A program made the position numbers and the translations under genes. Of a DNA stretch of 64,000 nt, positions 17,090 through 62,244 are shown piece after piece (the first letter of the stretch is position 1; each line of letters begins with the position of its first letter). The stretch is from Candidatus Poribacteria bacterium (lineage in GTDB: Bacteria > Poribacteria > WGA-4E > WGA-3G), in the NCBI GenBank assembly GCA_965215265.1, contig OZ244048.1:4000001-4064000 (forward strand). The letters are read 5' to 3'. The notes beneath the pieces were generated by a model, which had not been told where the DNA came from, searched no databases, and saw nothing but the letters and a program-made list of their open reading frames with translations.

Positions 17090-18728
17090 ATGCCAACCCT
17101 GAACTGGATAGGAAAAGACGCAGTCATCAACCACCACAACGAGGTGCCAATACACACTCTCACTTACAACTCACAACTCTCCAGCGGCACCGCACCTACC
17201 TCGCCCGGCACAGGCAATCTCCTCATTGAAGGCGACAACCTCCTCGCACTCAAAGCACTCCTCCCATACTATGCTGGCAAAGTCAAATGCGTCATCATTG
17301 ACCCGCCCTATAATACCGGCAATGAAAACTGGGTCTACAACGATAACGTCAACAACCCAACCATCCAGAAATGGCTCGGAAAAACAGTGGGGGCTCTCGC
17401 CGCAGATCTCTCTCGACACGATAAGTGGCTCTGCATGATGTACCCACGCCTCTGCCTGCTTCACCAACTCCTCCGAGCAGACGGTGTCATTTTCATTTCA
17501 TTGGACGATAATGAACAACCGAACCTGCGTTTACTGATGAACGAAATTTTTGGCGAGGCGAATTTTGTTGCGACTCTCATCTGGCGCAAAAAAGCAGGCG
17601 GCGGACAAGACACCGAATACTATGCTAGAGAGCATGAATACATCCTCTGCTACCGGAAAAGTGATGCCTATACGATGAAATTCAGAACCGCAGAGAGAAC
17701 GCAAGCGGAATTTCCTAAAATCAAAAACGGGCGAAAATGTAAATTCGTGAAACTCGAAAAATGGGGCTCTGGTTCTTACAAGGAGGACAGGCCGACCCTG
17801 TTTTATCCAATTAAGGATCCTGATGGAAAAGATTTTTTTCCTAAAGCGCCTAATGGAAGGGATGGACGTTGGCGCACCCATCCGGAAGCCTTAGACGAAA
17901 ACCATGTCCATTGGGAAAAAAGAAGCGGGCGTTGGACCCCGTACGAAGTCATCTATTTTGACGAGACACGCGACAAAATCAAAATTGTGAAAGAGCGGAC
18001 TATCTATTATGACATCGCGACGACAACGGATGCCACAAACGAGCAAAAAGCGATTTTTGGAAAAAAGGTTTTCGACAATAGCAAACCGCTTGAACTAATA
18101 AAGCGGTTGATACTCTTGTCTACTACCCCTGATTCAATTGTGCTAGACTCCTTCGCCGGGAGCGGCACGACAGGTCATGCTGTCCTCGCCCAAAACCGTG
18201 AAGATGGGGGCAACCGGCAATTTATTTTGGTTGAATTAGACGCGGAAATCGCACGCAAAATCACTGCCTTACGTCTCCAGCGCGTTAGCGAGGGGTACAC
18301 TTTTGAAAGGAAAGGACACCTACAGCATGTATTCGGCACCGGCGGCACTTTTGCCTACTACCACGTCGGCGAAACCTTCTCGGAGAGATCAGAAATTCCT
18401 TTTCATGAGATGGCACAATACCTCTTTTTCAAGGAGACAGGCACCCCAATGGCAGTTGACACCGCACTGTCCCTTGTAGAATCGGAGAGACCGGCATACA
18501 GTTCCTGTACCGCTCATGAAAAACGCGAACGCGCTTTTTTAGGAAGCTCGGACGGTGTCGGCATCTATCTGCTCAACAACGACGAATGTCCTCACTCCGG
18601 CGCTCATAAACCGCTTACCGCGTCATGAGGGCAGCAAGATTATCCATTGCGGTGGCACCGAACTCACGGAGGCTTCCTTAAGGCAGCTCGGCATCATCTT
18701 TCGCCAGATGCCGTACCACCTCGTATAA
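17090..18728 (+). CDS. mod: Type III R-M N6-adenine methyltransferase (Mod); frameshift near 18584, primary frame stops at 18628
   Basis: DPPY and FAGSGTT motifs. A typical Mod tail NVLTPALINRLPRHEGSKIIH...IFRQMPYHLV* continues in another frame, 18585-18728. Confidence 0.85.
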
Positions 18729-18955: not shown

Positions 18956-19393
18956 ATGCACCCCAAATCAGAAATAGAAGACATCATCATCCATTCAGCA
19001 CCATTCAGCGACTGGCTCGCGTCTATTGTCGACGCAGAGATATTTGCTTCACATGAAAAACTCATTGCGCTGCTCGAGGCGGATAGTTCCCACCAAGTAT
19101 TAGCGCAAGAGTTCCGAGAGTTTTGCAACGGCTACCACAGCCTCGCCTTAGAAAAGGATATTTCACGTTGCGTTGTGGAGATTATAGAGTTATCTATACT
19201 TACGATGAACGTACTCAAACAGTTAGCGTACACAAAATTGGACATCGTCCATCTGTCTATAAACTATAACCCGGGAAACGAAAAATGCACCTTCCACTCA
19301 AAGAATACCAAGAGCGTACCCTGGAAACGCTGGCAACCTACTACCAAACCTGCCTGCAGTATGAGAACCCCAACACTGCATTTTACCATTTAA
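18956..19393 (+). CDS. Hypothetical protein between mod and res (overlaps res by 109 nt)
   Basis: 145-aa ORF, helical and acidic over the first ~105 aa; downstream of a good promoter; weak SD. Confidence 0.4.
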   Translation: MHPKSEIEDIIIHSAPFSDWLASIVDAEIFASHEKLIALLEADSSHQVLAQEFREFCNGYHSLALEKDISRCVVEIIELSILTMNVLKQLAYTKLDIVHLSINYNPGNEKCTFHSKNTKSVPWKRWQPTTKPACSMRTPTLHFTI

Positions 19394-21678
19394 CCCAACG
19401 GCCGTATGCCGGCATTGAAGCCTTACCGGGTATGCCTTACATTTGTCTCCGGCTACCGACAGGTGGCGGTAAAACCTTTGTCGCATGTCACGCTGTCGGT
19501 ATGACTGCATCAGCACTCTTAAAGACCGAGTGTCCGCTTGTGTTGTGGCTCACCCCTTCAAATGCTATACGGGATCAGACGCTGCATGCACTTAAAAATC
19601 CTGAGCATCCATACAGAGATGTTTTTAGAGCTGCAGGGTACAACGTAGAGATACGCACGGTTAGCGAGGCCCTCTATCTACAACCGCATATTCTCAATAC
19701 GAAAACGACTATTATCGTCTCTACGATGCAAGCGTTCCGCGTTGAAGACACCGATGGACGCAAGGTTTACGAGCCCTCAGGCGCACTGATGGGACACTTC
19801 ACACACCTCCCGGGCGAAACCCTCTCGGAGATTGAGCGCGACGAAAGCGGTAAACCTGTCTATTCGCTTGCGAACCTCTTATGTGTCAAGCGCCCCCTCG
19901 TCATCGTTGACGAAGCACACAACGCGCGCACGCAACTCTCTTTTGATACGCTCGCCCGGTTCAACCCCGCCGCAATCATTGAATTCACCGCGACACCCGA
20001 TACAAAGCAAAATCCTTCCAATGTGCTCTACACTGTCTCTGCTGCCGAACTCCAAGCCGAAGACATGATTAAGATGCCGATTCTGTTGGAAACCACACCA
20101 GAATGGAAAACACTCCTCACCGCTGCTATTGCCCAACGTGCAGCACTCGAACTTGATGCAGAAAAGGAACACCAAAAGACTGGCGAATACATACGTCCGA
20201 TCATGCTAATTCAGGCACAGCCACGAAACAAAAACCGAGAAACCTTGACTGTCGAAGTCGTTGAGAAATGTCTGTTTGAAGAACACGATATCCCCGAAGA
20301 GCAGGTGGCACGCGCTACAGGTGAGGACAGAGGACTTGACAACGTCGACCTCAACGATCCAGCGTGTCACATTCGTTATGTTATCACTGTGCAGGCGTTA
20401 CGAGAAGGCTGGGATTGTCCATTTGCGTACGTCCTCTGTTCTGTCGCTGAAATGAAATCCTCCACTGCTGTTGAACAGATATTAGGGCGGATCATGCGTC
20501 TCCCGAAGGCACAGCGCAAAACACAAGAATCACTGAACAGTGCTTATGCTTTCGCCGCCTCTCAGAACTTCTATAATGCCGCATCCGCCTTAGTCGATGG
20601 GCTCGTCCACAACGGGTTTGAGAAGCAGGCAGCTGCGGAACTCATCCGAACTACGGACGATAACCAACCTGTTTTACCGATTTTTAGCGGCATGACACCC
20701 CCGAGCACCGAGCCTGCACCCGCAGAACGCGGCGAAACCTTTAACGTGCCGAAGTTGATGGTCCAAGCTGAACAGGGGCACCTTGACTTTGAGGCATCCC
20801 GTTTTTTACAAACTCCATGGCACTTATCCGAATGCGACGCTGAACTCACTCAAGAGGAGTTTCCAGCTGAATTTAGCACGGGCGAACGCGGCGAAATCGG
20901 GCTCGCTCGCGACGGACGATTAGAGATGCGATTCTTCGGGGAACTCCATCAACAGATGACCCTCCTCGCCACAGATAAAAACTGGGATGCAGCACGACTC
21001 GCCGATTGGCTGGACAGAACTATTAAACATCTGGACATCCTGCGCCGGGAGTCCCTCCCTTTCCTACAGCGGTTAGTCACGCATCTGATTGAAGTACGAA
21101 ATATCCCGATAGAGGAGCTCATCCACAACAAGTACGCCCTCAAAGATGCCGCTGCCGCTAAAATTGATAGCCATCGCCAAACCGCACACCGCGGCACCTA
21201 TCAGAACCTGCTCCTACCCGAATGCGAAACACCGGTCGTTGTCTCACCGGCGCACTGCTTCTCCTTCGACGCACACCGTTATCCCTACAACACGCGTTAT
21301 GCCGGTGCCTATCAATTCCAGAAACATTACTACCCACACGTCGGAGAACTGAAGGCCGAAGGTGAAGAATTCCGATGTGCCCAATTCATTGACACGCTGC
21401 CTCAAATTAAATATTGGGTACGGAACCTTGAACGCCAACCGCTTTCTTCTTTTTGGCTCCAAACCTTAACCGACAAGTTTTACCCTGATTTTGTCTGCCT
21501 CTTAACCGATGGACGCTATTTAGTGGTTGAGTACAAGGGGGAACATCTCTGGTCTGCCGACGATGCCTCCGAGAAACGAGAAATTGGCGAATTATGGGAG
21601 GCACGAAGTAATAGCCAGTGTCTGTTCATCATGCCCAGAGGACCTGATTTTGAAGCCATCCGCACGAAACTCGCATGA
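19285..21678 (+). CDS. res: Type III restriction endonuclease (Res)
   Basis: LKEYQ, PTGGGKT, DEAH, EGWDCP, QILGR and C-terminal YPDF...EYKG nuclease motif. Confidence 0.9.
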   Translation: MHLPLKEYQERTLETLATYYQTCLQYENPNTAFYHLTQRPYAGIEALPGMPYICLRLPTGGGKTFVACHAVGMTASALLKTECPLVLWLTPSNAIRDQTLHALKNPEHPYRDVFRAAGYNVEIRTVSEALYLQPHILNTKTTIIVSTMQAFRVEDTDGRKVYEPSGALMGHFTHLPGETLSEIERDESGKPVYSLANLLCVKRPLVIVDEAHNARTQLSFDTLARFNPAAIIEFTATPDTKQNPSNVLYTVSAAELQAEDMIKMPILLETTPEWKTLLTAAIAQRAALELDAEKEHQKTGEYIRPIMLIQAQPRNKNRETLTVEVVEKCLFEEHDIPEEQVARATGEDRGLDNVDLNDPACHIRYVITVQALREGWDCPFAYVLCSVAEMKSSTAVEQILGRIMRLPKAQRKTQESLNSAYAFAASQNFYNAASALVDGLVHNGFEKQAAAELIRTTDDNQPVLPIFSGMTPPSTEPAPAERGETFNVPKLMVQAEQGHLDFEASRFLQTPWHLSECDAELTQEEFPAEFSTGERGEIGLARDGRLEMRFFGELHQQMTLLATDKNWDAARLADWLDRTIKHLDILRRESLPFLQRLVTHLIEVRNIPIEELIHNKYALKDAAAAKIDSHRQTAHRGTYQNLLLPECETPVVVSPAHCFSFDAHRYPYNTRYAGAYQFQKHYYPHVGELKAEGEEFRCAQFIDTLPQIKYWVRNLERQPLSSFWLQTLTDKFYPDFVCLLTDGRYLVVEYKGEHLWSADDASEKREIGELWEARSNSQCLFIMPRGPDFEAIRTKLA

Positions 21679-30184: not shown

Positions 30185-31936
30185 TTAATCTGACAGCGGC
30201 GAGATATCCGACACTTGTGTATCACTAAGATCCAGCACTTTCAAGTTGGTTAGGTCTGACAGAGGTGTGATATCCTCTACTGGCGTACCCGAGAGAGACA
30301 GCTCTACCAAGCTGGTGAGGGTTGACAGCGCTGAGATATCCGACACTTCTGTATCACTGAGATCCAGCGTTTCCAAGTTGGTGGCGTGTTCAAGTCCAGT
30401 CAAAACGCTAATGTCTGAGCCACCTAAATCTAGGCTTGTCAAGTCTAGCATATGTGCCACGGTCACAGCCGTCCCAGCGGTGATGTCGAGTTCCTCCTTG
30501 ATTTTCGCAAGGAGCGTCTCATCCGGAATGGTCACCTCGCCGCCTGTTGTATCTACTGGCACCGTCAGCGTATTCGAGGCACGGCTCAGGTTGCCCGCTA
30601 TGTCCATTGTGGCATTCTCTGGCACCCTTATTTCCACATTTCCGTCAAAACCCGACGGCGGCGTGATAGTCGCTCTGTAGACTTTGAAGGCGGAACTATG
30701 TTTCACCAACCCCAGATCATCATTCCCCGGCGCAAAACCGGGATCCCGATGGTCTAAGCCGATTAACATCGGGGCTGAAACCTGCCAATCAGCCGTGGTG
30801 GTGCCTAGTGTCACCGCGGTGCCATCTGCCTGGAGCGTAATGTCCGTCGCCTCGAAGCCTCGCGTGGTATCTGCAATCACACCATCATAGCCATTTCCAA
30901 TCCCATAATTGTAGAATAGGAATTCCACATCAAAGGACTCTGTCTGAGTGTCACGTTCGGTAACAGGCGGATTGGGCTCTGCCGCTTCAAACGGTGCAAA
31001 ATTCACATAGGCGGTGCGGTAACCCGTCTGAACATCATGAGTCCCGTCCTTGATCAGCCCGGGAATCCTCACACTCGCCCGTTTAGCATCTACTTGATAG
31101 TTAAGGCCGGTATGAATAAAAGGGTCCGTAGTCGGCGTCTTATCGTTTGAACCCAGCCGGCCAACGTAAAAGTCCTTCTGAAGCTTTAGTGAGTAGATAT
31201 TATTCGCAGAAGTTTCCCACTTATGATCAGCGAGGGTGTCCGAGACGGGGTTCGCGACGTCCTCGTCATTATCTATGATGAAATTCTCGTCATCATCATC
31301 ATACGCCTCAGCCAGCCAATTTATATTAATGCCATCGCCGAAAACGTTATCACCGTCTTGCACCGTGTATGTGAAATATACGACTTTAAGATCGGTGTCC
31401 GCATCGGTCCTTGCTGAATCATAGACGGCATTTAGCTCAGTAACCTTTTCGGGGGAGCGGAATTTCTCACCGTCAAACACTAGACCCAGGGCCGGCAGCT
31501 CGGACGTTCCATCGTGCTGGACTTTGACATCTATATCAAATGTCAACTTAAGAACGATTTCATCTGTATTACCGAAAACTTTAATCTCTAGGCCCATGGC
31601 GGGGTTGGAGTACCCGGGAGCAGTCAGAATGATGTCCCCTCTCTGTCCTGCTACTAGATCCTTCCGAGCCGCGGTTCTTCTCGCGGGATCGGTATTATCC
31701 TCCCAATCTTGATATAAATATTGCCTGCTATACGAATAGAGCGAATTGCCTGTATGTGTACCTTCACTCTCTATCTCAACCTTCTCTAACGTCGGTTTCG
31801 CTGCCTGCACAGTAGCCATCGGTGCGGCTAACATCACAACCCCGGCTATCGAAATTACAGATGAGATAAATCTGACACTCAACACGCAAATAAAATACTT
31901 AACATATAGAAGGGGGGGGTGCATTCTTCTCTTCAT
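30185..31936 (-). CDS. Secreted protein with Ig-like regions and internalin-type leucine-rich repeats
   Basis: Signal peptide; FTYTVQDGD and DIAGN Ig-like motifs; IPDxxL cap followed by 22-aa LRRs (LTNLKVLDLSDTQVSDISPL). Confidence 0.8.
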   Translation of the reverse strand: MKRRMHPPLLYVKYFICVLSVRFISSVISIAGVVMLAAPMATVQAAKPTLEKVEIESEGTHTGNSLYSYSRQYLYQDWEDNTDPARRTAARKDLVAGQRGDIILTAPGYSNPAMGLEIKVFGNTDEIVLKLTFDIDVKVQHDGTSELPALGLVFDGEKFRSPEKVTELNAVYDSARTDADTDLKVVYFTYTVQDGDNVFGDGININWLAEAYDDDDENFIIDNDEDVANPVSDTLADHKWETSANNIYSLKLQKDFYVGRLGSNDKTPTTDPFIHTGLNYQVDAKRASVRIPGLIKDGTHDVQTGYRTAYVNFAPFEAAEPNPPVTERDTQTESFDVEFLFYNYGIGNGYDGVIADTTRGFEATDITLQADGTAVTLGTTTADWQVSAPMLIGLDHRDPGFAPGNDDLGLVKHSSAFKVYRATITPPSGFDGNVEIRVPENATMDIAGNLSRASNTLTVPVDTTGGEVTIPDETLLAKIKEELDITAGTAVTVAHMLDLTSLDLGGSDISVLTGLEHATNLETLDLSDTEVSDISALSTLTSLVELSLSGTPVEDITPLSDLTNLKVLDLSDTQVSDISPLSD

Positions 31937-32487
31937 CTTATCTAACTCCTTGTTATTCTTTATCCCGTTACGGAATAAACTTGACTTTATAGTTCGGACT
32001 AAGTTTCCGAACAGACTACGTTTTCAACACTTTTCGCCAATTCGTAAGACGTGCACACAGGTGTTCAAAAAATGAAATCGTGTTTGTGAATCCCTTTCCA
32101 AAAAATGCAGTGCATTCACAAACTCTCAACGGACACGTCAACTCATTTTTTCACTTTTAAAGAACACTTTTGCTCTCTTCTAACCCTGCAAAGGGTTATT
32201 TGACTTAATTATACCTCAAGAAGAAGTGTTTGTCAAATTAAAAATATGTGGAATATAGCAAGATAGAGTTCTATTTTCCTGACGAGCTAATTTTTACCTA
32301 CATTAATTCTATCACATGCGTGAGTTGGTACCAATTTATTTCTACGTGCTAATAATTCTATCCAGGTTAATAAAAATCTATAAGGACCTTATGACTATCG
32401 CAGCAGCTTTTTTCTTGAATACCGAGCAGCGATCTGTTAGGATGTTGGATAAGCAAAAAAAACTTTAGTATATAGAGAAAATAGACA

Positions 32488-32883
32488 ATGCCAACAGATT
32501 CAACACTCGATGCAATTTCTCCTTTTTTTATTGTCAATAATCTTGCTGAGTCAATCGATTTCTACAATCAAAAACTCGGTTTTGCGATAGAGCTCCTTCT
32601 CCCAGAAGAAGATCCGTTCTTTGCGATAGTGCATCGTGATAGCGTGCGTATCCTTCTTAAACAGATTACGAAAGATATCCTTCCGGTCCCCAATCACATC
32701 CGCCATCAGTGGGCAAGATGGGATGCATTCGTCAGGTGCTCCAATCCGGATGTGCTCTTTTCTGAATTTGAATTTTGCGGGGTGCAGTTTCACGAGCCGC
32801 TCAAAGATACCGAGGACGGCCTTCGAGCGTTTGAAGTCAAGGACAATGATGGTTATGTATTGTGTTTTGGGAGCCCGCTTTGA
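32488..32883 (+). CDS. VOC/glyoxalase/bleomycin resistance family protein
   Basis: SIDFYNQKLGF and GLRAFEVKDNDGYVLCFG. Confidence 0.85.
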   Translation: MPTDSTLDAISPFFIVNNLAESIDFYNQKLGFAIELLLPEEDPFFAIVHRDSVRILLKQITKDILPVPNHIRHQWARWDAFVRCSNPDVLFSEFEFCGVQFHEPLKDTEDGLRAFEVKDNDGYVLCFGSPL

Positions 32884-33326
32884 GCCACTCCGGAACACGA
32901 ATAGGTAATCCTGAGGACTTAGCCTCAGTAATATAATAGCCCTAATTGCGTCTGATGCATAGTGATTATAGTAGCGAAGTGCTTCGCTTTGATGGAGAAA
33001 TTATACATCTATTTACGATCAATCCCAATTGGAAACGATATAGAAAATCAATTAAGATTTTGCGTTATTTTCGAAAAAGAGTTGAGCTTCCACAAGAGCA
33101 GCTCGCAATAGAATAGGCGAATAGTTTGATGGCAGGCTGCTAAAGATAGCGTGAGTTGAGCAACTTTTATCTTTATAATCGCCGTTGAAAATTTCGCGAT
33201 AGGACAGTATAATAGATATAATTGTGATTTCATTAAGCACCTCTGGCGAAATTTCTCCTTAATTTGATTGCGTCAAGAGCTGCCTGAAACTGAATTGTCT
33301 GAAAATTGTGCTGAGGGTCCATTCAA

Positions 33327-34070
33327 TTGAGCGATGTTCCGAAAACACACCCGCGTTACTTATCGCTGAGATTGCGAGATACGATTGTGGCAGGCGTTGA
33401 GAATAGCATTACTTCCATCCACGGCCTGATTGCCCATGGTAGGGGAGAAGCATTTGACTATCTCCTTGGCGAGACAACGCAGCCGTTTGCACTTGAGGCG
33501 GTTCGTGCTGCTGCTGCCATGCTCTGTTTAGCTGAACACCCAGTCATTTCTGTTAACGGGAACGTAGCGGCCTTGGTGCCTCAAGCGTTAATTGAATTGG
33601 GACAGTTGTGCAATGCCCCGTTAGAGGTAAATATCTTTCACACCGATGGAGTGCGCGAGAAGGCGATTCGACAGCATCTCTTAAAACACGGGGCCTCCGA
33701 AGTGCTGATGCCGACTGCACAGGCACAACTCTCCTATATCGACTCAAACCGAAAGTTTGTGCATCCTGAGGGTATCTTCAAGGCCGACCTCGTGTTTGTT
33801 CCCTTGGAAGATGGAGACCGGTGTGAGGCACTGCGGAAAATGAGGAAACAGGTCGTCACAGTCGACCTGAATCCGATGTCGCGTACAGCAGAGCAGGCAA
33901 ATGTGACGATTGTGGATAACGTTGTGCGGGCCTTGCCGTTGTTATGTGCAGAAGTTCGAGAAACTGCCAGACTTACCGATTCTGCGATGCGGGATATAGT
34001 GGCGAGATATAGCAACGAAATGGTGCTACAGGAGGCGTTGCGGTGCATCCGTGGGAGCGGCGATGGCTAA
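33327..34070 (+). CDS. Archaeal-type 4-phosphopantoate--beta-alanine ligase (phosphopantothenate synthetase, COG1701)
   Basis: HPRYxSL, GLIAHGRGEAFDYLLGE, PVISVNGN, VPLEDGDR, DLNPMSRT and DNVVRA motifs; TTG start. Confidence 0.9.
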   Translation: MSDVPKTHPRYLSLRLRDTIVAGVENSITSIHGLIAHGRGEAFDYLLGETTQPFALEAVRAAAAMLCLAEHPVISVNGNVAALVPQALIELGQLCNAPLEVNIFHTDGVREKAIRQHLLKHGASEVLMPTAQAQLSYIDSNRKFVHPEGIFKADLVFVPLEDGDRCEALRKMRKQVVTVDLNPMSRTAEQANVTIVDNVVRALPLLCAEVRETARLTDSAMRDIVARYSNEMVLQEALRCIRGSGDG

Positions 34071-48770: not shown

Positions 48771-48986
48771 TTGAATTTTGAAATTAAACTTGATAAACTA
48801 AAACAAATCGTTGAAAAATTGGAAAGCGGCGATGAATTGACGCTTGACGAATCACTCGGCATGTTTGAAGAGGGCATCACCATGGCCCGTGATTGTAGAA
48901 ACATGCTGGAAGCTGCAGAATTACGGATACAGAATGTCCTAGAAACGGACAATGAGGAAGAAGTAGATGTTCTTAGAACAGATTGA
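48771..48986 (+). CDS. xseB: Exodeoxyribonuclease VII small subunit
   Basis: FE...L...V..LESG...LDESL..FEEG; TTG start with AGAGGT SD. Confidence 0.92.
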   Translation: MNFEIKLDKLKQIVEKLESGDELTLDESLGMFEEGITMARDCRNMLEAAELRIQNVLETDNEEEVDVLRTD

Positions 48987-50973
48987 CAGCCCTGCGTCAC
49001 TAAAAACGCTTGACATCCAAGAACTTAAGACGCTTGCAGAGGAGATGCGTGCGTATCTGTTAGCGGTACTTTCAGAACATCCGGGACATTTCGCGCCTAA
49101 CTTTGGTACGGTTGAGTTGGCCATCGCACTTCACACCGTTTTTGATACACCGCATGATAAAATTATCTGGGACATTGGGCACCAAGCATATCCACATAAA
49201 CTTCTCACCGGACGTAGGGACGCGTTTCCAACACTCCGCCAAACGGGCGGCATCAGTGGGTTCCTGAGTCGTGCAGAAAGTGAGTACGATGTGTTTGGTG
49301 CGGGGCATTCAAGTACCTCCATCGCAGCGGCCCTCGGCATCGCGACTGCACGGGATGTTACCAATGCTGATTACAAAGTTGTGGCTGTCATTGGTGATGG
49401 TGGATTAACCGGAGGCATGGCCTTTGAAGGGCTAAACGCTGCAGGTGCTCCCGATCTATTCAAACGTAAAAAGGATATAGTGGTTATCCTAAACGACAAT
49501 CAGATGTCTATTTCAAACACTGTGGGGGCCCTGGGGCATCACTTGAAAGCATACTTGGAAGCGTCGAAACATTTTCATAAACTGACAAGTTCGCCGAACT
49601 ATAATCTGCTGCGTGAAGGTGCCAAGGAGCTCATCAACCGGATTTCCCCAGAGGCAAAGGGACTCGCGAGTAGGGTTGAGGCGGCTTTGAAACTCGGAAC
49701 ACTATTTGAGGAGCTCGGATTTCGCTACTTCGGACCCTTAGACGGTAACGACTTAGAGGCATTAATCCCAGTGCTGACAGGTGTCCGGGAGTTGTCTGGA
49801 CCGCGCTTCATTCATCTCGTCACTGAAAAAGGCCGCGGCTATCCTCCTGCTGAGACAGATCCAGTCGGCTTCTATAGCGTCAGCGGTCCGTTCGATCTGG
49901 AAACAGGAAAGCCAACGTCGAAAAAATCGATCACGCCCACGTATACGCAGGTGTTCAGCAAAACTTTGATTGACTTGGCGAAACGAGACGCACGTATTGT
50001 CGGTGTCACGGCCGCCATGCCAGGCGGAACCGGGTTGGATAAGTTTCAGAAAGAATTTCCGAACCGATGCTTTGATATCGGCTTGGCTGAGCAATGTGCT
50101 GTCACGTTCGCTGCCGGACTCGCCACAGAGGGGTTGCGTCCTGTTGCTGCTATCTATTCTACCTTCCTACAACGTGCCTACGACCAGGTGCTCCACGATG
50201 TATGCATTCAGAATCTGCCTGTAATCTTCGCACTGGATCGGAGCGGACTTGTGGGTGCTGACGGTCCAACGCACCACGGCGTTTTTGATTTGGCATATCT
50301 TCGCTCTATGCCTAATATGGTAGTTATGGCACCCAAGGATGAGAACGAACTCCAGCATATGGTGAAAACCGCACTCGTTTACGAAGATGGCCCCATTGCC
50401 TTCCGTTATCCTCGTGGTAGTGGTGTTGGAGTCAAGATAGAGGAAAAACCGAAGGCACTTCCAATTGGTAAAAGCGAAATCGTCAGAAAGGGTGATGATC
50501 TGCTAATCGTTGCCCTCGGAAATCGGGTTTATCCAGCATTGGCTGCTGCACAAAAGCTGGAAGAAGGGGAGAGTTTCACGCAGAGTTTACGGGGAACAAA
50601 GGATGTAGAAAAACACAATGTCCGTTCCGATATATATCAAACGGCAGTACCACACAAAGTCTCCGCAGCGGTTATCAATGCACGTTTTGTCAAACCCTTG
50701 GATATTGAGTTGATTCTTCCGTTGGCTGAGCGTATTGGCAACGTCATTACGGTTGAGGATGGGGTGTTGATGGGAGGATTCGGCAGTGCAGTTTTAGAAG
50801 CACTTGCAGCCGCAGGTATGACAGATATACACGTGAAGACACTCGGCATTCCTGATCGATTCGTTGAGCACGGTGATATTCAGCAGCTTTACGCGATGTA
50901 CGGGTGTGATGAAACCGCTATCCTCCGCGCCGCTGCGGATTTTTTCGTTTTTTCGTCTACAGGAGCCCAATGA
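48967..50973 (+). CDS. dxs: 1-deoxy-D-xylulose-5-phosphate synthase
   Basis: WDIGHQAYPHK, GHSSTS, GDG...N, YSTFLQR, DGPTH, RYPRG, RFVKPLD. Confidence 0.95.
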   Translation: MFLEQIDSPASLKTLDIQELKTLAEEMRAYLLAVLSEHPGHFAPNFGTVELAIALHTVFDTPHDKIIWDIGHQAYPHKLLTGRRDAFPTLRQTGGISGFLSRAESEYDVFGAGHSSTSIAAALGIATARDVTNADYKVVAVIGDGGLTGGMAFEGLNAAGAPDLFKRKKDIVVILNDNQMSISNTVGALGHHLKAYLEASKHFHKLTSSPNYNLLREGAKELINRISPEAKGLASRVEAALKLGTLFEELGFRYFGPLDGNDLEALIPVLTGVRELSGPRFIHLVTEKGRGYPPAETDPVGFYSVSGPFDLETGKPTSKKSITPTYTQVFSKTLIDLAKRDARIVGVTAAMPGGTGLDKFQKEFPNRCFDIGLAEQCAVTFAAGLATEGLRPVAAIYSTFLQRAYDQVLHDVCIQNLPVIFALDRSGLVGADGPTHHGVFDLAYLRSMPNMVVMAPKDENELQHMVKTALVYEDGPIAFRYPRGSGVGVKIEEKPKALPIGKSEIVRKGDDLLIVALGNRVYPALAAAQKLEEGESFTQSLRGTKDVEKHNVRSDIYQTAVPHKVSAAVINARFVKPLDIELILPLAERIGNVITVEDGVLMGGFGSAVLEALAAAGMTDIHVKTLGIPDRFVEHGDIQQLYAMYGCDETAILRAAADFFVFSSTGAQ

Positions 50974-58950: not shown

Positions 58951-61900
58951 ATGGGAATGCGACATAAGTTGGCGGTACAATTTGCGAAATGCTCGTTTTT
59001 TGGAAATTTACTGGTGTTTTTCACGTTCACCTTTGTGTGTTACGGCTTGCAGGAGCTGCCGAGAGCCAGTGCAGATGTTTCAGGAGACATAGGAGTTTCT
59101 GAGGCTATAACAAGTGAGACGCAACAGGGGCTGCCAGTGCATAATTCTGACGAGAATTTATATGAAAATCTCATTGTACGGAAAATTGACTATGACATTG
59201 ACGGTGTCCCTGTTTATGAGACTGCAGTAAGGAATAGGCTCAGGGAGCAGACATTTCTAAAAATTGGCACGCCGATTTCTCGGTTTGATGTTCAACGCAG
59301 CGTTAAATCTCTCTATAGTTCAGCAGCGTATTCTCAGATTAATGTTTATGCCCAAGTTATATCGGAAGGCGTTGTATTAAAATTTCAGTTGACGAGTGTT
59401 GCACGTATAGAAAAAATTGAAGTCAAGGGGGTTCCTGATGGGTTGCGTTCAGCGATTCAAAATACGATACAATCAAAACCGGGCGAGGCGTATGTGCCTG
59501 TATTTGCTAAGAACGATGTGGAACGCATCAAACGGGTGTGCGGCGAGCACGGTTATTTTAATGTGAAAGCCCTGTTTAAAATAGATACTATTGTATCGGA
59601 TTCCGCTGAAAGAATTGTCCCCGAGGGGAGGGTGAATTCTTCACGTGAAGACGAATCCCTCAACCTTTCGGACACTTCCAAAGCAAGAGCTTTAATCTAT
59701 CAGATCACCTTAGGCACTCCGTCCCGCATCGCTGGGCTGCAAATTCGAGGGCATGCAGCGATGTCCGCAGGTCGCATCAAGGCGGCTTGCCGCCTTGGCA
59801 TCGACGATATCTACCGCAAAACAGCTGTAGAGGCGGATATCCAATCGATTCGAGAACTGTATCGGAAAAATCGCTATTATACGCCTATTATTGTCCCTCA
59901 TTTTGACCCTAAAACAGGAGTACTACAATTTCGGATTGATGAGGGGAAACAGGTGCTGCTTGAGTTCGTTGCTTCAGATATCAAAATTGATGAGAAGGCG
60001 TTGATCGAGGAGGCGAGGTTTTCGTCAACTTCGCCTGCTTTGTGGCAGCAATCTATAATACGGTATTTTGAGAAGAGAGGTTACATCGGGACAACAGTGG
60101 ATGAAATACCTTTAGCAGTTGGTCCTTTAAAGGGGAAAGGGGGGATTAAGTTTATCATAAACCCAGGCGTACGCTATGTTGTTACACGCGTAACCTTTTC
60201 AGGGAATCAAGTATTTTCGGCAGCACAGTTGTTACAAGAGATGGAGCTGCACCCTACGGAAGGGGTTTGGCGGCTTTTCGGAAAAAAACGTTTTTTTGAT
60301 AAACAGATCCTAAAAAAAGATAGACAACGGCTGAAAATTTTATATGAGAAAACCGGGTATCCCTACGCTTCTATTGAGACAATAGCCACACCCGATAAAG
60401 ACAACGCCAATAAACAGAACATTGGAGAAATGGCGATTCATGTGATTATCACTGAATCCTATAAAGAGGTGATACATCGATGTCGTTTTCAGGGCAATCG
60501 CGCTGTAGGAACGGATATACTGCTTCAGCATCTCCCTTCTGATTTCCAATTGCCCCAACCGAATGTACGATTTGTTAGAATAGCCTATCAGAATGCCGTC
60601 GAAAAATCCTATCATGAACGTGGATACATTGATGTGACGGTAGAAGCACGATATATAGCCCAGACTGAAACGCCTATTTTTCAGGTGGAGGCTGATTTTT
60701 CGGAAGCCCTTGATGAGGGGCGACTGCCCGGGAAACTTCAAATGGAATTTGTCAATCGCGACTTACCGCTTGCCGGGACCTTTATCGCCTTAAAAATAGG
60801 AGAACTTTGGAGTATTCAAGATGTAGCCGGCAATCCTCGATATTCTTTGATACAACGTCAAACGTACCTTGAGGTTTTTGAACACGGGATGCTCCACCTT
60901 AATATTTTTGAAGGGGAACAATCGTACTTCGGCAAATTCCATTTTGAAGGCGAGCTCGATGTGAAATCGTATGTTCTCACACGTGAGGTAGCACACCTTC
61001 AGGGCACACTCTATACTCCTACGAAATTGAACGAAGCTGTACAGAATCTTTACGATACTGGCATTTTCCAACGCGTCCAACCCAAGCATAAGCCCCGTGG
61101 AACCACGACAGCTACCAGCACACCGGGAACATCCCTATGGGTGGCAGGGAAAAGGACAGAGAAAGATACCTATCCTGCCACTATTTTGCCAAAACACATT
61201 TCCCATCAGCACCGCGAAACTTGGATTGAACTTCAAAGACAGAAACCCGGTGCCTATGGCGGCGGTATCGGATACAGTTCTTTGGACGGCATCCGGCTCT
61301 CTTTTAGGTTAAGGCATTGGAACCTTCTCCAACGGAATATTCGAGGCAGTCTCCGAGGAAGGTTAGGCACGCGGGGCTATCTCTACGACGCAACCCTCAC
61401 GGAACCGTGGCTGGTCCGTCGAATTCACGGCAGTTTACAATTCTCCGGCAGAAATTTGGAGGAAGACGATAATGTACAGGCACTCCAAGGGAATTTTATC
61501 CTGAGCCGGAAATTCGCACGCGCTCATCTGCTCAATTTACAATATAACTACCGGAATCTACGCCAACAGGTCGAAGAAAATCTGAGAGATATCAGTTTTT
61601 CTGAACTTGAGGCACAACGAACAACCGTTAGCAGTCTACGATTCACATGGGCACATGACAGCCGGTCGCCCTACCTGAATCCAACGTCGGGCATGTTGAA
61701 TGAAGTGACGCTTGAATATGCAGGCGGTTTTTTGCAAGGAGAAACGAGTTTTGTAAAAACCACCACAGATTTCCGATATTACCAACAGCTCAGTACATCG
61801 GGACCTGTCTTGGCAACTGCATTGCGTTTTGGCATCACAAATGGGTTAGGCTCAAATCGTAGAGCAGAGCTCATCTCCTTTGAACGATTCTGGGCAGGGG

Positions 61901-62244
61901 GCATGAACACCATCCGCGGCTATGCAGAACGCGGGCTCGGCCCATTAGATAGCACCGGCCGATACCGTGGCGATGTACGCCTTATCTTCAACACGGAGCT
62001 GCGCTCCCCCAATTATGCGCTGTTTGATATCCTCCATCTTGGCGGCGTGGCGTTCTTTGATACGGGGAATGTATGGGGTTCAGTGGACGACATTGCCTTA
62101 GAGACGTTGCCTTCCGCAGTTGGTGTAGGGCTCCGCTTAACCTGGGGACCCATCACAGGCGGGATTGATTATGCTGTACCCCTACTTTCTATTCCAGGTG
62201 TTTCAGAAAATACATCCTATTTACAACTCGGAAGCACCTTTTAA
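58951..62244 (+). CDS. Omp85 family outer membrane assembly protein (BamA/TamA-like) with POTRA domains
   Basis: Repeated POTRA motifs (FSGN, Y...GY), ERFWAGGMNTIRGY lid motif, FFDTGNVW, terminal F. Confidence 0.9.
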   Translation: MGMRHKLAVQFAKCSFFGNLLVFFTFTFVCYGLQELPRASADVSGDIGVSEAITSETQQGLPVHNSDENLYENLIVRKIDYDIDGVPVYETAVRNRLREQTFLKIGTPISRFDVQRSVKSLYSSAAYSQINVYAQVISEGVVLKFQLTSVARIEKIEVKGVPDGLRSAIQNTIQSKPGEAYVPVFAKNDVERIKRVCGEHGYFNVKALFKIDTIVSDSAERIVPEGRVNSSREDESLNLSDTSKARALIYQITLGTPSRIAGLQIRGHAAMSAGRIKAACRLGIDDIYRKTAVEADIQSIRELYRKNRYYTPIIVPHFDPKTGVLQFRIDEGKQVLLEFVASDIKIDEKALIEEARFSSTSPALWQQSIIRYFEKRGYIGTTVDEIPLAVGPLKGKGGIKFIINPGVRYVVTRVTFSGNQVFSAAQLLQEMELHPTEGVWRLFGKKRFFDKQILKKDRQRLKILYEKTGYPYASIETIATPDKDNANKQNIGEMAIHVIITESYKEVIHRCRFQGNRAVGTDILLQHLPSDFQLPQPNVRFVRIAYQNAVEKSYHERGYIDVTVEARYIAQTETPIFQVEADFSEALDEGRLPGKLQMEFVNRDLPLAGTFIALKIGELWSIQDVAGNPRYSLIQRQTYLEVFEHGMLHLNIFEGEQSYFGKFHFEGELDVKSYVLTREVAHLQGTLYTPTKLNEAVQNLYDTGIFQRVQPKHKPRGTTTATSTPGTSLWVAGKRTEKDTYPATILPKHISHQHRETWIELQRQKPGAYGGGIGYSSLDGIRLSFRLRHWNLLQRNIRGSLRGRLGTRGYLYDATLTEPWLVRRIHGSLQFSGRNLEEDDNVQALQGNFILSRKFARAHLLNLQYNYRNLRQQVEENLRDISFSELEAQRTTVSSLRFTWAHDSRSPYLNPTSGMLNEVTLEYAGGFLQGETSFVKTTTDFRYYQQLSTSGPVLATALRFGITNGLGSNRRAELISFERFWAGGMNTIRGYAERGLGPLDSTGRYRGDVRLIFNTELRSPNYALFDILHLGGVAFFDTGNVWGSVDDIALETLPSAVGVGLRLTWGPITGGIDYAVPLLSIPGVSENTSYLQLGSTF

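Follow-up and report, generated by a model that had tools for sequence, protein, structure and literature searches.

An archaeal-type phosphopantothenate synthetase is an ordinary gene of its Poribacteria lineage

Whether phosphorylation or ligation comes first on the way from pantoate to 4'-phosphopantothenate was long taken as a marker that tells archaea from bacteria. [quoted passage not shown] In 64,000 nucleotides of a Poribacteria chromosome (hereafter the window, meaning the whole stretch that was analysed), an earlier note made from the letters of the DNA had seen a PPS gene of archaeal type and had proposed an inter-domain transfer, leading to a hybrid CoA route or to an enzyme acting on unphosphorylated pantoate. 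How does such a gene come to be in a diderm bacterium, and what does it do there? The features of the window that bear on these questions are listed here.

32488-32883, + strand: intact open reading frame of the glyoxalase/bleomycin-resistance family (PF00903, E 3.8e-8), 131 aa
32884-33326: AT-rich spacer upstream of PPS, 443 nt
33185-33213, + strand: promoter-like site TTGAAA-17-TATAAT within this spacer, score 11/12
33327-34070, + strand: PPS (4-phosphopantoate--beta-alanine ligase; COG1701/PF02006), TTG start, full-length, 247 aa
34063-35979, + strand: polytopic membrane protein with DUF6785 and DUF6784 (PF20581, 535.8 bits; PF20580, 113.4 bits)
48967-50973: dxs
58951-62244: Omp85/POTRA gene

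The product of 33327-34070 matches the Pfam profile PPS_PS (PF02006) over its whole length (positions 2-176 of 176), scoring 221.7 bits where the cut-off is 26.4, and NCBIfam NF010324 with 331.1 bits, above the cut-off of 227 (positions 2-242 of 252). Its score against the archaeal equivalog NF041123 (4-phosphopantoate--beta-alanine ligase) is 292.9 bits, 7 below the cut-off of 300; this model was built for archaea, so that the shortfall touches automatic naming only and not membership of the PPS family. The solved structure of the Thermococcus kodakarensis enzyme (3WDK; also 3WDL and 3WDM) is collinear with the window protein from end to end (residues 2-242 against 2-243, E 5.8e-66), as is that of T. 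onnurineus (4MB0/4MB2; E 6.4e-65 for 4MB0), and the blocks GLIAHGRGEAFDYL, SVNGNVAAL, VPLEDGDR, DLNP.SR and TIVDN are common to the window and Thermococcus proteins. Among 25 archaeal-side sequences, 55 columns are invariant or have a single exception; the window protein retains 54 of them, the sole departure being L67 to C. What sets it apart from the Thermococcus enzymes is its setting, as its host is a mesophilic diderm bacterium and its gene overlaps that of a bacterial membrane protein. Family membership thus confirms the open reading frame on the + strand as a predicted phosphopantothenate synthetase, and the profile matches, the alignment with 3WDK and the conserved columns bear out the earlier identification of a COG1701-type gene, of archaeal type and in a diderm bacterium. 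The dxs and Omp85 genes that had been named as its bacterial surroundings are both in the window. PPS is present in a single copy in its own genome, and its GC content is 0.50-0.52 against 0.481 for the genome.

The membrane-protein overlap was also correctly seen, and concerns the DUF6785+DUF6784 gene. Its overlap with the PPS stop codon amounts to 8 nt if this gene starts at the ATG at 34063 and to 20 nt if it starts at the GTG at 34051, the first possible start; the alignment with orthologues begins only at residue 4-5 of the GTG-started frame, which makes the ATG likelier. PPS and the DUF6785 gene are probably co-transcribed. The 'Atlas' clusters for this protein are all DUF6785 clusters; in one of them 11% of members carry PF03169 OPT, which is a lead only. 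Paralogues with DUF6785+DUF6784 are numerous in this genome: tblastn gave no fewer than 22 other full-length matches along the chromosome, at 32-44% identity.

Upstream of PPS, GC falls to 0.35-0.45 across 31750-33250, against 0.481 for the genome. The earlier note had described an AT-rich remnant here. The AT-richness is real, but the stretch holds an intact glyoxalase-family frame followed by a 443-nt spacer, and tblastn found no remnant of PoK or DUF6785 in 31937-33326 (nothing better than E 1). The promoter-like site in the spacer is one of 7 such sites where shuffles lead one to expect 6.8, and so is no evidence of function. At E 1e-10, the PPS loci of 11 relatives contain nothing that corresponds to the glyoxalase-family frame, which may be a small local insertion.

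A ligase of this kind would need 4-phosphopantoate, and the earlier note had found no pantoate kinase in the window. This is correct for the window, where the best PoK match by tblastn has E = 1.1, but the window covers only 4.00-4.06 Mb of a chromosome assembled as one contig of 4,833,177 bp (GC 48.1%, no N, 95.4% completeness). A homologue lies elsewhere on it, 3.1 Mb from PPS.

C1:923621-924562 (L006:1045-1986), - strand: pantoate kinase (PoK) homologue, 313 aa, named from its best NCBIfam and PDB matches

The best NCBIfam family for this protein is the pantoate kinase family NF040725 (153.6 bits, E 5e-45), with the next, unrelated families at about 32 bits, and its best solved structure is the pantoate kinase 6JBC (E 3e-15, against 1.6e-5 for homoserine kinase). 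Its scores are far below the NCBIfam equivalog cut-offs (153.6 against 380 and 73 against 500), so that its naming rests on best match, on co-occurrence with PPS and on cassette synteny in relatives. It is one of eight GHMP kinases in the genome and is flanked by a sulfatase gene and an unassigned open reading frame.

Searches of the same genome gave no match to PanC (PF02569), to CoaX, the type III pantothenate kinase (PanK; PF03309), to CoaA, the type I PanK (TIGR00554), or to PanD, each with a positive control; type II PanK (PF03630) gave no match either, with a control that matched in 0 of 14 genomes. PanB and CoaBC/DFP are present. The sole group-II PLP decarboxylase found (C1:3684855-3686498, - strand; L107:718-2361) has the PLP-dependent aspartate 1-decarboxylase PanP as its best model, with 80 bits against a cut-off of 606. 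The absence of panC that the earlier note had thought worth checking was thus upheld by the search, and coaA and coaX were likewise not found, while PoK turned up outside the window. With PoK and PPS present and PanC, CoaA and CoaX not found, the gene content points to a complete route of archaeal order rather than a hybrid one, and the proposed hybrid route or use of unphosphorylated pantoate is left unsupported.

We asked how these genes are distributed among 159 Poribacteria genomes, all of them at least 85% complete, with the following counts.

PPS: 134 of 159 genomes
PoK: 136 of 159 genomes (protein query, E <= 1e-20)
PanC: 22 of 159 genomes, in one as a 61-aa fragment only
CoaX: 21 of 159 genomes

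None of the 159 genomes carried both routes, and the genus tallies do not overlap: the 22 genomes with PanC and 21 with CoaX lack PoK and PPS. Three genomes (G010, G118 and G144) have PoK but neither PPS nor PanC, and one (G083) has PPS and no PoK match. The window's own family (f1) and family f2 carry PoK/PPS only, families f4-f9 carry PanC/CoaX only, and family f3 is mixed, with PoK/PPS in genera g8 and g11 and PanC/CoaX in genera g14-g18. In the 101 other genomes of f1, PPS was found in 98 and PoK in 100, with PanC and CoaX in none, and 35 of the 41 genomes nearest to the window's have PPS. For this lineage, then, the family is widespread and vertically inherited in bacteria (134/159 overall, 98/101 in f1), the outcome that the earlier note had itself named as speaking against its proposal, and PPS is a real but ordinary gene for its lineage. 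Duplicates occur in two genomes of the survey: G103 has two PPS copies (C1:2716262-2716780 and C1:3089428-3089943, the second in a 184-aa frame), and G114 has two PoK copies, on contigs C243 and C166.

The arrangement of the two genes differs between families. In all five loci examined from f2 and f3 genomes, PPS is immediately preceded by PoK on the same strand, and the two genes abut or share 4 nt. Among 25 further Poribacteria loci, 14 have the order PoK-PPS and 11 have PPS followed by DUF6785, with no PoK within 6 kb. The latter order is kept in six of six f1 genomes examined, and PPS has the same synteny in five other f1 genera as well as in the sister species (81% identity). The simplest reading is one PoK-PPS cassette that was later split in f1. 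Extra DUF6785 copies also occur near these loci, with a second copy upstream of PPS in G016 and a split copy of 41% identity upstream of PoK-PPS in genus g8. Across f1 genera, the DUF6785 orthologue adjoining PPS shows 83-92% identity against 69-81% for PPS.

From family membership, gene content, distribution and synteny as observed, we consider it highly probable that the window encodes a working PPS, with the substrates and flux of its route being predictions. PPS would ligate 4-phosphopantoate to beta-alanine in an ATP-dependent reaction, giving 4'-phosphopantothenate; the 4-phosphopantoate would be supplied by the pantoate kinase at C1:923621-924562 and the product handed to the bacterial CoaBC, such that PoK and PPS would stand in for the usual bacterial pair of PanC and PanK. 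PPS is an old, inherited chromosomal gene of its Poribacteria family and not a recent insert, and the PoK-PPS cassette of neighbouring families would have been split in the window's family, in which PPS now precedes and overlaps the DUF6785 gene.

Three other explanations were weighed against this one. In the first, the PPS of f1 has been recruited to a different ligation tied to the overlapping DUF6785 protein and is no longer, or no longer only, a CoA enzyme. Its separation from PoK and its overlap with DUF6785 in six of six examined genomes would fit such a role, as would the stronger conservation of the DUF6785 orthologue and an Acidobacteriota metagenome-assembled genome (MAG), G163, that has a PPS homologue and PanC and in which PoK was not found. 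We nevertheless judge recruitment very unlikely. The near-invariant columns are retained in all but one position; PoK persists in 100 of the 101 other f1 genomes and PanC and CoaX occur in none, which argues that the CoA role of PPS is still needed; and the DUF6785 paralogues are scattered over the whole chromosome, so that the adjacency of one of them to PPS may lack functional meaning.

A second explanation, to which we give a shade less credence still, is that PPS works without a pantoate kinase, joining unphosphorylated pantoate to beta-alanine as an alternative pantothenate synthetase in a hybrid CoA route. The family goes by the name 'phosphopantothenate/pantothenate synthetase' in both Pfam and NCBIfam, a Methanosarcina homologue reportedly once complemented an E. 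coli panC mutant, and PoK is missing from the window. Against this, a PoK homologue is present in the genome and in 136 of the 159 Poribacteria genomes, where it tracks PPS; a pantothenate route needs a PanK, and types I and III were not found; and PoK and PPS overlap as a cassette in relatives and have trees that agree. A third, that PPS is peculiar to this contig, having been inserted recently from another domain or joined to it by chimeric assembly, has next to no likelihood: the AT-rich stretch and the glyoxalase-family frame without counterpart in the 11 relatives' loci would suit it, but the 4.83-Mb contig without N, a gene GC like that of the genome, the synteny shared with the sister species and five other f1 genera, the presence of PPS in 35 of the 41 nearest genomes, and PPS and RpoB trees that agree in the main groupings within f1 rule out a recent insert, and the contig is not chimeric, a caveat that the earlier note had raised.

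A working PPS in a PoK/PPS route is also what published work on the phylum would lead one to expect, as the route is already known in Poribacteria. According to the main text of Thomès & Lescure (2020, Genome Biol Evol 13(2):evaa262; PMC7883664), PPS was found in 34 of 38 and PoK in 31 of 38 genomes of symbiotic, sponge-associated Poribacteria; no PS or PanK was found in this group ('Entoporibacteria'), and PS and type III PanK occurred only in the free-living group. Bacterial CoaBC is described as present in Entoporibacteria, and DPCK, PPAT and KARI are also listed. The genome studied here belongs to the same phylum, the named homologues of its PPS at 75-79% identity being all Candidatus Poribacteria, and it follows the pattern given there: PoK, PPS, bacterial CoaBC and PanB are present, and PS and type I or III PanK were not found. 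As far as that text describes it, the Entoporibacteria gene itself does not differ from the window's, which therefore adds one genome to an exception in print since 2020. PoK and PPS are called archaeon-specific in a statement by Shimosaka et al. (2019), and among the listed publications since 2019 that contain 'pantoate kinase', going by titles and the beginnings of abstracts, that of Thomès & Lescure alone deals with bacteria. Three observations reported here appear to go beyond its main text, although its supplements may bear on the first two: the overlapping PoK-PPS cassette, split in one family; the closest relatives outside the phylum, which are bacterial, with DPANN as the nearest archaea; and the PanC/CoaX genera nested among PoK/PPS genera.

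To place the gene beyond the phylum, we turned to the PPS family as a whole, which is small (515 representatives at 50% identity, E <= 0.001). A scan of species genomes with P0125, the nearest non-Poribacteria representative, gave at least 369 relatives, of which the best 80 were analysed. Of these best 80, 67 are from Bacteria (eight named phyla) and 13 from Archaea, indicating that the exception is not an isolated one.

Poribacteria: 25 of the best 80 loci
Chloroflexota: 22 of the best 80 loci
Pseudomonadota: 6 of the best 80 loci
Latescibacterota: 4 of the best 80 loci
Gemmatimonadota: 3 of the best 80 loci
Levyibacteriota: 2 of the best 80 loci
Acidobacteriota: 2 of the best 80 loci
Methylomirabilota: 1 of the best 80 loci
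Unclassified Bacteria: 2 of the best 80 loci
Woesearchaeota, Nanobdellota, "Methanosarcinales" and Nitrososphaerota: 13 of the best 80 loci together

The more careful of two PPS trees is unrooted and has 68 rows, among them 15 unnamed representatives (the two nearest and thirteen others); left out of it were 15 Dehalococcoidia and 12 Poribacteria loci of the best 80, 3 of the 11 relatives' loci, one locus without a matching open reading frame (L086), representatives outside 235-275 aa and rows on long branches. A single branch with 99/99 support divides 40 rows from 28. All named rows among the 40 are bacterial (Poribacteria 13, Chloroflexota 6, Pseudomonadota 6, Latescibacterota 4, Gemmatimonadota 3, Acidobacteriota 2, Methylomirabilota 1 and "bacterium" 1, with 4 unnamed). 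The 28 comprise 10 DPANN, 3 Methanobacteriota-labelled, 1 Nitrososphaerota and 11 unnamed rows, together with two Levyibacteriota and L098, which are nested within the DPANN group. Poribacteria PPS form one group (93/81), recovered in 92% of bootstraps. In a larger tree made quickly (102 rows), 29 rows make up an all-bacterial group (99), a Nanoarchaeota sequence adjoins it (95), and Chloroflexota and Acidobacteriota are set apart. The PoK tree (36 rows, unrooted) repeats the split of the 68-row PPS tree with 100/99 support, and its sub-groups too. Poribacteria, Chloroflexota/Dehalococcoidia, Gammaproteobacteria, Latescibacterota, Gemmatimonadota and Methylomirabilota are on the bacterial side of both trees, and Acidobacteriota on that of the PPS tree only. 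Sampling for both trees centred on one query, and the records are mostly MAGs, many of the bacterial ones being titled chromosomes.

These trees bear on the origin that had been proposed for the gene. Among the best 80 of at least 369 relatives, the nearest outside Poribacteria are bacterial and come from six other phyla, a phylogeny that goes against the earlier note. Inter-domain transfer remains the likeliest ultimate origin of PPS, as the note had held, but not as a recent event: the transfer is old and need not have been directly into Poribacteria. The genomes tested from Dehalococcoidia, Gammaproteobacteria, Latescibacterota and Gemmatimonadaceae (one each) have a PoK-like gene and no PanC.

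The CPR Levyibacteriota and DPANN archaea share the Poribacteria cassette order, in which PoK immediately precedes PPS in the same orientation (among the best 80 of at least 369: Levyibacteriota 2 of 2 loci, Woesearchaeota 4 of 5 and Nanobdellota 4 of 5), but the 99/99 branch separates them from Poribacteria PPS. The Levyibacteriota pair is nested inside DPANN, which points to a separate transfer. Two loci titled uncultured Methanosarcinales (L082 and L088) have PPS and PoK that fall inside the Woesearchaeota/Nanoarchaeota group and not with Methanomethylovorans (P0271), reflecting either mislabelled bins or transfer among archaea. On the bacterial side, the Acidobacteriota MAG G163 (9.5 Mb; locus L043) has a PPS homologue and PanC, with no PoK-like gene found; either its PPS homologue has another partner or role, or the bin is mixed. 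PPS is without an adjacent PoK both there and at L066. The label prefix SB06xx_bin on two Chloroflexi records also appears in a table of sponge Poribacteria in Thomès & Lescure; other records are titled groundwater, so that, as far as titles go, the bacterial clade is not confined to one habitat.

Within Poribacteria, closely related genera differ in the route they carry. In a tree of RpoB from 24 genomes (single marker, LG+G4), g11, with PoK/PPS, groups with g16 and g18, with PanC/CoaX, at 100/100. Constraining all 11 PPS-bearing genomes, a group chosen by gene content and not from the tree, to stand together costs 209 log-likelihood units (AU p 1e-5). PPS-bearing and PanC-bearing Poribacteria thus interleave on the RpoB tree, suggesting that the route has been switched more than once. 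Single contigs carry marker and route together on both sides of the divide, as G059 (g16) and G032 (g11) are both single-contig genomes, the former with rpoB, PanC and CoaX and the latter with rpoB, PoK and PPS. The PanC tree, in which the row for G050 was disregarded (wrong open reading frame, end branch 10), tracks the coarse RpoB order, with f3 genera beside f4 at 94/97, and PanC accordingly looks inherited within the taxonomic order to which these genera belong. Two histories would fit, movement of the cassette between Poribacteria lineages or coexistence of the two routes followed by differential loss. The RpoB frames of the 24 genomes (L109-L132) are 1,306-1,767 aa long; in genus g5, with a frame of about 1,770 aa, the rpoB model matches in two separate parts, suggesting a large insertion particular to that lineage.

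By a narrow measure, we favour a reading in which PoK and PPS travel together as a mobile cassette of two genes that has had its own history among bacteria. At least seven phyla would lie on one side of a strong branch, with DPANN the nearest archaea and the uptake by CPR a separate event, and within Poribacteria the cassette and PanC/CoaX would have been swapped repeatedly, or would have coexisted for long before differential loss. In their main text, Thomès & Lescure favour horizontal transfer from archaea and place the Poribacteria sequences nearer to euryarchaeota, with four archaeal references in the figure. If the mobile-cassette reading is true, a direct euryarchaeal origin would be too simple an account, as would the association, in the same text, of symbionts with the archaeal route and free-living members with the bacterial one. 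With multi-marker support, Poribacteria would offer a clean natural example in which an essential module of two steps was replaced, repeatedly, by a non-homologous one, and automatic annotation should then stop taking PoK and PPS for archaeal DNA in bacterial bins.

The genome has a second 'archaeal-type' gene, a homologue of beta-ribofuranosylaminobenzene 5'-phosphate synthase, an enzyme of the methanopterin pathway (C1:394972-395940, + strand; L008:1324-2292; NF040726, 339.8 bits against a cut-off of 328). Elsewhere in the window, a DNA N6/N4 methylase gene (17090-18628, + strand) is followed by a ResIII/DEAD helicase-nuclease gene (19285-21678, + strand), and the two look like a restriction-modification pair. 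The window also encodes a leucine-rich-repeat protein with an Ig-like domain and a signal-like N-terminus (30185-31936, - strand) and a TPR-rich protein (508-2112, - strand), both of the kind of eukaryote-like repeat proteins known from Poribacteria according to the main text of Thomès & Lescure.
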